A DNA stretch of 63,645 nucleotides, filler included, from Reclinomonas americana ATCC 50394 (Eukaryota), in assembly GCA_048213135.1 (NCBI GenBank). It is 14 parts of 11 records of this genome, joined end to end, with 100 filler letters (N's around TTAATTAATTAA, not from the genome) between each part and the next. Parts side by side here need not be neighbours in the genome. Positions count along the whole stretch, not along the records: positions 23,319 to 45,256 come from PS016023.1; 13 more parts are not named here. The stretch is one strand, 5' to 3'. The notes below the pieces were generated by a model. That model searched no databases. It saw only the letters and a program-made list of their open reading frames with translations, and was not told the DNA's origin. The position numbers were made by a program, and so were the translations under genes. The number at the start of each line of letters is the position of its first letter. The stretch's first letter is position 1. Shown piece by piece: positions 26,418-29,364 of this stretch.

Positions 26418-27736
26418 TCACCGCCGGCGAGCGTACCCGCTGCCGCTGTCGTTATCTTCTTCTTCTTCCTCTTCTTCGTCGTCTTCGTCCTCTTCCTTCA
26501 CACGGTAGTGAGCGGTGGCCGGTGCACTGTGGCGGCGACGCGCCAAATCGACGGTGCCCGACTGGCCGACGCTTGGCGAGCCGCCTTCTCGCACAGCCTT
26601 CCAGTGGCGTACTGTATTAGCAGAAGGAGGAGGTGAGTTGGGCAGAGTAAGCAGCGTGGTCGTCGTGACAAACCTCGCATGTTGGTGAACCAGTTGCTCA
26701 CTTGACGCTCCTGGAGACCGGTCAGGGACGCCAGATTCCTCTTCTCGGCAGTCGTTGGGTACGGGTGGTGGGCGTGCGACAGGAACCAGTCGCGCAGCGG
26801 GCCAACCGAGTCTTCCGACAGCTTGTTGCAGCGCGTTCGTGCTATCGGCGACCGCACAAGTGGTCGCGATCGCGGCATAGGCGGCATTGGTGGTGGCGGT
26901 GGCGGTGGTGGTGGTGGTAGCTGTGGCATTTGATGGAGGACTGGAGGAGGTGGCAGGCTGCAGCCGATGCTGGCTGCTATTGCCGCCGTTGCCACCGTTG
27001 TTGTTGTTGTCGACGATGATGACCGTTGTACCGGCGCCGGTAAAGGCGGCTGTACCAGCGAGCTCTCGACGCCACGCAGATACTGCACCAAGCGCGCATC
27101 GGCAGCCGCCACCGCCGCCTGTACCGCGCGCATGCGCACGAGATCGGCCAGTCTGCAGAGCAGCGCACGCATCGCCGAGGCCGGTAACAGCACCAGAGTC
27201 GCAATGTCGTAATCATCATCGCCGCATCCGGCCATATTATCCAGCGACTGATGCAGTATGCGCTCCACCGTTGCCAGCAGGATCTGGCGGGCCGCCGACC
27301 AGCGGCGCCACACTTCATCGCGCACATGCGACGTAAGGCGACTGGCGCTGGCCACTCGCGGAAACTGGAGCTCCAGTAATCGCGATTGGCGCGAACTATC
27401 AGTGGACAAGCCGCATATGGAAGCCGCCGTTGCCGCTCGACTCGCGTCCTCCACCGCCTGCCTGATCGACTGGTGGCCGCTCACCAGTGCCTCGAGCATG
27501 CGTGGCACTGGCGACGACTGGAGCAGCAGTGCAGCAGGCGGTGGAGGAGGTGGAGGTGGAAACGAAGGAGGTGAGGCCAGTGAGGCCATCAGGAACATGT
27601 CGATGGAGAGTGAGGACCACAGATCATCGTTGTCGAGTGGATCCATGGCTGTGTGCTTGCTGCCTGGGAAGTAGTCGGTGGTGGCCAGTGGGAAGCCAAA
27701 CTCGAGCTCGTCGTGGAACCCACAGTCGGTCAGCAT
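26418..27736 (-). CDS. TALE-class homeodomain protein, BELL/MEIS-like (intron 26612-26673)
   Basis: KLSEDSVGPLRDWFLSHAHHPYPTTAEKRNLASLTGLQERQVSNWFTNMR|VRHWK. It has the PYP loop extension and an RVRxWK helix-3 tail like BELL proteins. Confidence 0.85.
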
Positions 27737-28098
27737 TCTGTCTCCCTCTCTCTGTGTCGAGTGTGAGAGAGATCAGCAGCCAGTGAGAGGAAATCTGACG
27801 CGCGCACATCCACACTCACCGCCTGCAGGTGGCGCGCTCACCGCTGCACTGGATGAAAAGAACAAATGATTGGCGAGTTCGACACACGAGTTGTCTCGCG
27901 GAGAAAGAGCGGAAGAATAAGTGTCACGCAGCACATCACTGTAAGTCTCTCCGGTCGGGTTCTTCCGTTTTTTTCCTGCGCCGACTGCTCTTGTCGATTG
28001 CGGCAGTGCCTGACGGTTGCTGTTCCCCCGATCCGCCGCGTCTTGCCGCCTGCAAGTGCTGTTGTGGTGTGAGTGTGCCTTTCTTCCGACGACGATCG

Positions 28099-29364
28099 AT
28101 GGAGAGCAGGATCCGTGTCCATGCGCTGTGGCGGCAGCTGGTGGACACGTTTCGTGCCACCTTTGAGCTGGAGAATGTCGACGAGGATGTGGGCATGCTT
28201 GATGACGAGGTCGACGACGACGACGGCGACGACGGAGAGCTCGGCGGCAGTCTCGACAATGTCGCCGAGACGTTTCTCACTCGCGCCGTGTCGCTGCTGT
28301 GCCAGCTGAAAGCCGACGTCGATCGGCAGCGCACCCAGTGGGAGGCCGTGATGCAGCAGCACGTCACTGACATGGAGCGTGATCTGGAGGCTGTGCTTGC
28401 GCCAGCCGTGCCTTCCGTGCCTGCCAGTGTCATGTCGCCGATCATGGCGTCACCGGCTTCTTCCTCGCGCGATCGCTCGCTCAATCAGCTGAAGCGGCAG
28501 TGCGAGACGGAACTGGAGGAGCTGACGGTGGAGCTGGCGGCAGCGCGCAAGCGCAGCAAGTTGCTGCCAGAGTTGTCGACCCACATTCTGCGTTCGTGGT
28601 TTCACGAAAATCGTCAGCAGTTGCGTGCTCGACGATCCGTGAGACAGACAATCCGCTCACCCTTTGCTTGTTTCGCAGTCCATATCCTGACGACGACGAG
28701 AAGGCACACCTGGCCGCCGAGACCGGCCTCACCATTGTTGCGTGCGGTTCACAAAAAATACTGAAGCAGTTTTTGTATTGCTCACTGGCCTCTCCTCCAG
28801 AAACAAGTCAACAACTGTGCGAAGCGAAACACAGTCCGCGTTCTGTCGCGAGTACCACTGACTGTGTGGGGTGTTGTGCACAGGGTTCATCAACGCCCGG
28901 AAGCGCACCAAGGCCAAGGGCTTTGACGGTCGCGAAGACGAAGCGTTTTCGGTACGTATGTGTGTGTGCCAGGCTCCTTGCCGTTTTTCCGGAGACTGAG
29001 ATGTGGTGGCTTTGTATAGCCGCCTGCCGTGCGCAACAAGATCCGCATACAAGACGAGCTGCGGCAGCGGCTCACGCACACCACATCGCCTTCGACTGCA
29101 GCCACCACCACCAGCTCCTCGTCCTCGTCCTCGTCTGGCGGCGCAGCATCGGCCGCCCCAGTGGCACCGCTGGGACGAGGCGGTGTAGGCGAGGCGGTGC
29201 CGGACCACCTGCTCGACTTCATCATGGGCAGCATGGTGCGCGGAACAGCGGCGGCGGGGGCAACGAGTACGGCAGCGACAGCCGCGGCAGCTGGAGATCG
29301 AGGTGCGCAGAAACCAGTGGGGCTCGTCGACATGATCATGGGCGGTGTGGTGTGGCCCATGTGA
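28099..29364 (+). CDS. TALE-class homeodomain protein, KNOX-like (exons 28099-28619, 28679-28736, 28801-28816, 28884-28951, 29020-29364)
   Basis: Homeodomain RKRSKLLPELSTHILRSWFHENRQH|PYPDDDEKAHLAAETGLTI|KQVNNW|FINARKR. It is preceded by an ELK-like helix (DRSLNQLKRQCETELEELTVELAAARKRSKL) and a KNOX2-like segment (LDNVAETFLTRAVSLLCQLKADV...EAVMQQHVTDMERDLEAV). Confidence 0.85.

Follow-up and report, generated by a model that had tools for sequence, protein, structure and literature searches.

Do two dissimilar homeobox genes that diverge from a short spacer in the genome of Reclinomonas americana ATCC 50394 form a heterodimeric pair, and is their locus a mating-type locus? The genes lie in a 63,645-nucleotide stretch of this genome, 14 parts of 11 records joined end to end (hereafter, the window), for which an initial annotation, made from the sequence alone, had proposed a KNOX-like and a BELL-like TALE homeobox gene arranged head to head, a candidate mating-type or zygote-programme locus. 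We found that the locus, on contig C1113, indeed contains two spliced TALE homeobox genes, both intact, diverging from a spacer of 362 base pairs (bp), with the ATGs at 27736 and 28099 and homeodomains 44% identical, as the annotation had described in outline. The explanation that we prefer, and to which we give about even credence, is that a KNOX-group gene and a non-KNOX partner stand on one shared promoter and probably constitute a heterodimeric life-cycle switch.

Gene A, on the minus strand, was modelled with two exons and one intron of 62 nucleotides (nt) and encodes 418 amino acids; gene B, on the plus strand, was modelled with five exons and four introns of 59-68 nt and encodes 335 amino acids (Table 1). 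Splice sites and start codons are those of predicted models, in which all five introns have GT-AG borders. A second contig (C5509) carries a region that is colinear with the locus at ~95% DNA identity over ~9 kb, including the flanking genes for glycogen phosphorylase, RPL21 and a protein that, from its translation, we take to be RPS19. The models of A and B are open in this contig too, and all five introns have matching splice sites. Because many other loci also occur as two copies, we take C5509 to be the second haplotype in an assembly of a diploid or of two clones. A and B are intact, conserved, single-copy genes, although the start of B is uncertain: in each haplotype the reading frame stays open for ~80 codons ahead of the modelled start and includes a further in-frame ATG, which in the window lies at 27853, 82 codons upstream, and in the second haplotype at another site, 77 codons upstream. 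Exclusion of the upstream ATG by means of the second haplotype was rejected, since another in-frame ATG stands in its place there.

Table 1. Features of the divergent TALE gene pair (positions along the window)
Feature	Position	Strand	Basis or remark
Gene A exon 2: end of helix 3, acidic tail, stop	26418..26611	-	gene model
Gene A TALE homeodomain (T50, V54, R55-H56-W57), intron-split	26592..26842	-	Pfam match, alignment
Gene A intron, 62 nt, GT-AG, homeodomain position 54(1/2)	26612..26673	-	second-haplotype equivalent 65 nt
Gene A exon 1, from ATG 27736	26674..27736	-	open in second haplotype
Gene A helical pre-homeodomain region, ~residues 131-224, weakly PBL-like, YLxG[LIV] end at residue 219	27065..27346	-	by-eye comparison, low-confidence model
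Spacer between the two ATGs, 362 bp	27737..28098	.	putative shared promoter
Gene B exon 1	28099..28619	+	gene model
KN-A-like helix of B, residues 5-18	28111..28152	+	motif test, by-eye comparison
KN-B-like helix of B, ~residues 59-100	28273..28398	+	motif test; helix 49-103 in low-confidence model
ELK-like helix of B, residues 131-146, immediately N-terminal of homeodomain	28489..28536	+	motif in position, 17/100,000 shuffles
Gene B TALE homeodomain (I50, K54), introns 28620-28678, 28737-28800 and 28817-28883 at 23c(2/3), 42/43 and 48(1/2)	28543..28921	+	
Gene B intron 4, 68 nt	28952..29019	+	gene model, second haplotype
Gene B last exon, low-complexity tail, stop	29020..29364	+	no Pfam family

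The homeodomain of gene B carries the sequence WFINARKR, to which the initial annotation had drawn attention, together with the three-residue loop extension, and a 24-residue piece of it matches the Pfam family Homeobox_KN (E 3.4e-6). Classes were compared by eye with rows taken from parts of supplement 1 of Joo et al. 2018 (PMC6219170), up to 400 characters per row; here and below, statements from the cited papers refer to the passages used from each. In this comparison, the B homeodomain is identical to the KNOX row of the glaucophyte Cyanoptyche at 33 of 51 positions. Three helices precede it, KN-A-like, KN-B-like and ELK-like in this order, the first two separated by an acidic linker and the last two by a Pro/Ser linker; the ELK-like helix directly adjoins the homeodomain. 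The KN-A-like helix shares 7 of 15 residues with the Cyanoptyche KNOX row and 6 of 15 with the Acanthamoeba MEIS row; the latter, examined after the motifs described next had been fixed, also fits the KN-A of B by eye. Three degenerate motifs (KN-A, KN-B and ELK) were written, after B had been seen, from columns common to the published rows. Each matches B exactly once, and the three matches stand in the expected order, KN-A in six of its seven columns with one mismatch; the invariant P of KN-A is R in B. All three motifs together were found in none of 100,000 shuffles and in none of three control proteins (gene A, a BELL protein and a fungal protein), the single-motif rates being 82/100,000, 255/20,000 and, for ELK in position, 17/100,000 shuffles. 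In a six-frame scan of 66 loci (553,072 residues), two or more of the motifs were recovered solely in the allele of B. A structure model of the N-terminal region contains helices at residues 2-22, 49-103 and 120-173, with low confidence (predicted local distance difference test, pLDDT, 55.6); a fold search with this model returned nothing at E 0.001, and exon 1 compared with the PDB gave one weak, unrelated match. K54 of B is a weak class marker; many unrelated metagenomic TALE proteins carry it. Judged by the ordered motifs, B very probably belongs to the KNOX group.

The recognition helix of gene A, WFTNMRVRHWK, likewise corresponds to what had been annotated and is formed by splicing (WFTNMR/VRHWK). 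The homeodomain matches Homeobox_KN (E 1.4e-15) and has the three-residue loop extension when aligned with the PKNOX1 and MEIS chains, so that both genes are TALE, unlike fungal HD2, as had been claimed. V54 of A is found in the BELL, PBX-Red and PBX-Glauco rows of the PMC6219170 supplement, and T50 combined with R-H-W in the Gonium GSP1 row. Gene A thus has the hydrophobic residue 54 and W57 that mark non-KNOX proteins, and has no KN-A/KN-B motif. Its helical pre-homeodomain region ends in YLxG[LIV], as do both distinct PBX-Glauco sequences; this ending occurred in 226 of 100,000 shuffles, and together with an upstream helix motif in 1 of 100,000, both motifs having been chosen post hoc. The RxITP motif, which is central in the published PBL-type rows, is not evident in A. 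The N-terminal region was modelled as helices with low confidence (pLDDT 52.5). Homologue searches with residues 75-354 of A yielded two proteins, both matched via the homeodomain, and with residues 298-354 one candidate and no match. Since the likeness to BELL is limited to the recognition helix, "non-KNOX (PBL/GLX/BELL side)" is the safer label for A, which is probably the non-KNOX side of a TALE pair, as far as its residues and motifs indicate.

The spacer, which is 364 bases long in the second haplotype, differs between the haplotypes by 7 substitutions in 360 aligned bases (1.9%), versus 5-6.5% at the synonymous sites of the genes. It contains a 13-nt element twice (27819 and 28046) and may serve as a shared promoter of A and B. 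Neither an invertible element nor a long inverted repeat was found flanking it, and an invertible spacer was rejected on this ground. If a KNOX group gene and a non-KNOX partner are both driven by this one short promoter, then, by analogy with the family, the KN-A/KN-B helices of B would bind A in the helical region ahead of its homeodomain, and the A-B heterodimer would enter the nucleus and bind DNA with both homeodomains. The heterodimer might then turn on a life-cycle programme, for instance that of the zygote or diploid stage, a step for which the analogy is weaker. With both genes in every cell, the state of the switch would depend on promoter timing or post-transcriptional control and not on the allele brought by a mate. 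TALE pairs are known across eukaryotes, and KNOX and non-KNOX TALE proteins bind each other via their N-terminal domains, the binding controlling nuclear entry and DNA targeting; in each of the three algae examined, the two kinds were reported to heterodimerize (PMC6219170). In Galdieria, Pseudoscourfieldia and Ectocarpus, haploid cells express the two partners together (PMC6368402, PMC13353863, PMC13213038).

Several results weigh against this explanation. The KNOX2-like and ELK-like segments that had been noticed in B are recovered by eye and by the motif test, but the Pfam search detected no KNOX1, KNOX2, ELK or Meis domain in B, and the shuffle rates overstate significance because the motifs were chosen post hoc, after B had been seen. 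Exon 1 of B had no relatives among 1.84 billion protein representatives. For gene A, the BELL-like character that had been proposed holds for the recognition helix (V54, RHW) but not beyond it: Pfam gave no POX or PBC match, the likeness to the PBL domain is weak, and the best local alignment with the POX region of a plant BELL protein, albeit at the expected place, scored no better than shuffled sequences, 2868 of 5000 of which reached as high a value. BELL membership of A was rejected on the POX and pairwise results. Thus, of the profiles that had been suggested for the pair, Homeobox_KN is present in both genes, but KNOX2, ELK, POX and PBC were detected in neither; genome-wide, profile searches run with no positive control gave no match to KNOX1, KNOX2, POX or PBC. 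Short spacers are, moreover, ordinary here, with 209 bp between two stop codons and ~570 bp between the divergent RPL21 and RPS19 genes. Finally, Acanthamoeba PBC and MEIS formed no complexes in band-shift tests (PMC3957477), so a PBC/MEIS-like pair of a protist need not bind.

How A and B are related to each other was assessed from the homeodomains, which are 44% identical over 66 columns, compared with 42-49% to BELL, fungal and the closest metagenomic TALE proteins. Recent duplication within one subfamily, which the initial annotation had named as an outcome that would speak against the pair, was rejected, as each homeodomain is about as similar to unrelated TALEs as to the other; the N-terminal parts have no BLAST similarity (best E 1.8). 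A tree of 19 sequences was weakly supported, KNOX references being absent from the sample. PMC6219170 treats homeodomain introns at 44/45 and 48(2/3) as ancestral. Neither gene has an intron at exactly 44/45 or 48(2/3): those of B interrupt the homeodomain at 23c(2/3), 42/43 and 48(1/2), and that of A at 54(1/2). Two other TALE-like genes of the genome appear to keep 48(2/3), and the 48(1/2) intron of B may be the same intron shifted by one base. The B introns at 28620 and 28737 begin with an identical, unusual GTTGCG donor that is kept in both haplotypes.

A search of the genome with Homeobox_KN at E 10 produced 47 candidates, all of which were scored, a lower bound for intron-rich genes; 27 regions besides the window were inspected, and C2205 and C612 were counted, by their equal scores, as the other copies of C1245 and C9. 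Among the 47 homeodomain-like matches, no conventional single-homeodomain TALE gene was found besides A and B. Of the remaining TALE-like loci inspected, C355/C376, C89, C75/C379 and C112 are double-homeodomain and C2698 is atypical; the rest look like typical homeodomains. The N-terminus of B occurs in two copies in the genome, namely, those of the two haplotypes. At least four loci, the double-homeodomain ones just listed, seem to encode two TALE-like homeodomains per gene; the C112 unit is itself tandemly repeated, and in the C355/C376 gene a Cys/His-rich stretch resembling a zinc finger precedes the first homeodomain. Other homeobox genes, arranged in tandem repeats (C4089, C4090, C4092, C927 and C2460), score with Homeobox_KN yet are devoid of the three-residue extension. 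A metagenome scan of 33 TALE loci, a weak test given that most loci were <3 kb, uncovered no close relatives and no locus with a convincing second homeodomain on the opposite strand. The Atlas look-alikes were generic Homeobox_KN clusters.

Is the locus a mating-type locus, as proposed? Between the haplotypes, the proteins are 96% (A) and 95% (B) identical, with synonymous divergence of 6.5% and 5.2% and ratios of nonsynonymous to synonymous differences (pN/pS) of 0.20 and 0.33, respectively. Four phosphorylase exons show synonymous divergence of 2.0-3.5% and no replacements. The TALE genes are somewhat more variable than the phosphorylase gene, in line with other allelic pairs, which have 89-97.5% DNA identity, and with another TALE-like frame, which has 94% protein identity. 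Diversity of the N-termini, the check that had been suggested for mating-type alleles, is low in the two haplotypes of the assembly: the N-terminal domains are 97% identical, selection is purifying, and replacements are not concentrated there (p 0.55 and 0.77). There is no dip in identity at the TALE locus across the ~9 kb of colinearity, and no third allele was present among the 47 Homeobox_KN matches. Of the hallmarks of HD1/HD2 loci, the divergent homeodomain pair is present, but the combination of one TALE and one typical homeodomain and the allelic hyper-divergence are not. For comparison, homeodomain (HD) alleles of Trichaptum with >86% identity make up one incompatible class (PMC8970355), and HD alleles of Agaricus are 76% and 26% identical, versus 98-99% for the flanking genes (PMC8305134). 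On the evidence of two haplotypes, possibly of one mating type, an HD1/HD2-type mating-type locus is not supported, and the pair looks co-regulated instead. A HAP2/GCS1 gene (C648 and C134) and a gene of the SPO11/TOP6A family (C26 and C171), the latter assigned to family only and of putative meiotic identity, are each present in two copies that are ~95-97% identical, the HAP2 copies lying away from the TALE locus. These genes point to a sexual capacity of the organism.

The multi-allelic version of a mating-type locus, in which, as in basidiomycete HD1/HD2, A and B would bind solely across haplotypes, is highly improbable in light of these data, with proteins 95-96% identical, colinearity without an identity drop, divergence at the level of the genomic background, no N-terminal excess of changes, no third allele, and identity above the Trichaptum class limit and unlike that of the Agaricus alleles. 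What it can draw on is the head-to-head layout shared with HD1/HD2 (PMC8305134), 11 amino-acid changes in regions of putative interaction (6 in B 1-148 and 5 in A 75-228) and, as a lead only, a basidiomycete HD1 cluster that is an Atlas look-alike of B exon 1 (0.83); moreover, both copies might derive from cells that share a mating type, leaving other alleles unseen. Near-identical haplotypes are, by contrast, compatible with a spacer that works as a toggle, each gamete firing in one direction, KNOX in one type and the partner in the other, such that fusion makes the heterodimer. The partner proteins of Chlamydomonas are gamete-specific, in Bostrychia the female sex-determining region carries the PBX-type gene and the male one the KNOX gene (bioRxiv 2025.02.11.637652), a cell expressing both partners could not sense fusion (PMC6368402), and HAP2 is encoded in the genome. 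Such a toggle would work on the same principle as in Chlamydomonas, though with the two genes together at a single, non-polymorphic locus. It is, however, not needed, considering the same-cell co-expression documented in Galdieria, Pseudoscourfieldia and Ectocarpus, and the spacer is not flanked by an invertible element or long inverted repeat; we consider it quite improbable. More generally, the divergent promoter could be a sex or ploidy switch, be it through a one-direction-per-gamete toggle or a low-divergence allelic recognition pair, and the locus a TALE-TALE counterpart of HD1/HD2, possibly surviving from the inverted duplication that founded both TALE groups, a scenario that strikes us as unlikely.

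A different possibility is that A and B are neighbours with no joint function, the layout being left over from an old inverted duplication or due to chance in a compact genome, and the two factors acting separately or in a non-sexual process such as encystment. This would agree with the tight gene spacing throughout, the local duplication of homeobox genes in this genome (C4089/C4090 and C112), the double-homeodomain organization of several TALE loci, the housekeeping nature of the flanking genes and the Acanthamoeba pair that formed no complexes (PMC3957477). Nevertheless, A and B look like members of two anciently separated TALE groups, with recent duplication excluded, and the chance of adjacency for two named genes is ~2/N, roughly 1e-4 if the gene number N is assumed to be near 20,000. 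We regard mere neighbourhood as a rather doubtful explanation.

The neighbours of the pair are housekeeping genes, for glycogen phosphorylase, RPL21, Coq4, condensin H and a TMF-like protein, and with intergenic gaps of ~180-570 bp near the locus, the short spacer itself is nothing special. RPL21 and the S19-like gene form a second divergent pair (29548-31750) that adjoins the TALE pair. The phosphorylase, whose best match is 62% identical, has a long Ala/Ser/Pro-rich C-terminal extension past the Pfam domain (25890-26208), with no amino-acid changes between the haplotypes. Elsewhere in the window, a run of Ns borders on a short tandem repeat whose translation is a series of VRTY units (32556-33254 and flanks) and may be a masked or collapsed repeat, and similar open frames recur in blocks two to three times at ~12000-16000 and 49000-56000, suggestive of segmental repeats or of duplicate contigs joined in the window. 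In the assembly at large, small subunit (SSU) rRNA (1521 bases) and intron-free thymidylate synthase matches were found solely on contig C1; by these features the contig looks bacterial, and the assembly seems to include contaminant DNA. A search of the genome for light-harvesting proteins gave no match, which is not proof of their absence.

The preferred explanation, a co-regulated KNOX/non-KNOX pair, finds its closest parallels in the KNOX/non-KNOX and MEIS/PBC pairs, including Chlamydomonas GSM1/GSP1 (PMC6219170), in which one partner has KN-A, KN-B, ELK and K54 and the other a hydrophobic residue 54 and a helical pre-homeodomain region; by eye, the closest rows are those of glaucophyte KNOX and PBX proteins. 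In R. americana, in contrast, the genes are adjacent and divergent, the domains have diverged beyond what Pfam recognizes, and no intron stands at exactly 44/45 or 48(2/3). None of six published pairs (Chlamydomonas, Cyanophora, Galdieria, Cyanidioschyzon, Naegleria and Salpingoeca) has consecutive identifiers, the identifiers being the only ground for non-adjacency, and those of Cyanidioschyzon (CMR153C/CMR176C) and Salpingoeca (EGD73338/EGD73507) are close in number. Ectocarpus OUROBOROS/SAMSARA (ORO/SAM), the KNOX/BELL-related pair of Galdieria and the Gsm1/Gsp1 homologues of Pseudoscourfieldia (PMC6368402, PMC13353863, PMC13213038) are likewise TALE-TALE life-cycle pairs, and their partners are co-expressed in haploid cells irrespective of mating type; the passages concerned report no head-to-head linkage, and ORO/SAM have no KNOX and ELK similarity and bind via the homeodomains. 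In Bostrychia moritziana (bioRxiv 10.1101/2025.02.11.637652), KNOX-type and PBX-type TALE genes are also tied to the genetics of sex or the life cycle, but PBX is on U and KNOX on V, whereas here both genes are side by side on both haplotypes. Basidiomycete HD1/HD2 (PMC8305134, PMC8970355) share with the present locus two dissimilar homeodomain genes that diverge from a short spacer, but HD2 is a typical 60-residue homeodomain protein, whereas both genes here are TALE, and allelic hyper-divergence is not seen here. A literature search, mainly of abstracts and covering few subscription journals, turned up no report of an adjacent or head-to-head KNOX/non-KNOX pair.

With no mating-type polymorphism, what is unusual about the locus is how it arranges a known system; the system itself is not new. 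Even so, KNOX-type and partner-type genes arranged head to head would add a further lineage, that of a poorly sampled protist, to those known to have the pair, and the locus would combine, within 3 kb, the protein pair of algae with the gene layout of fungi.

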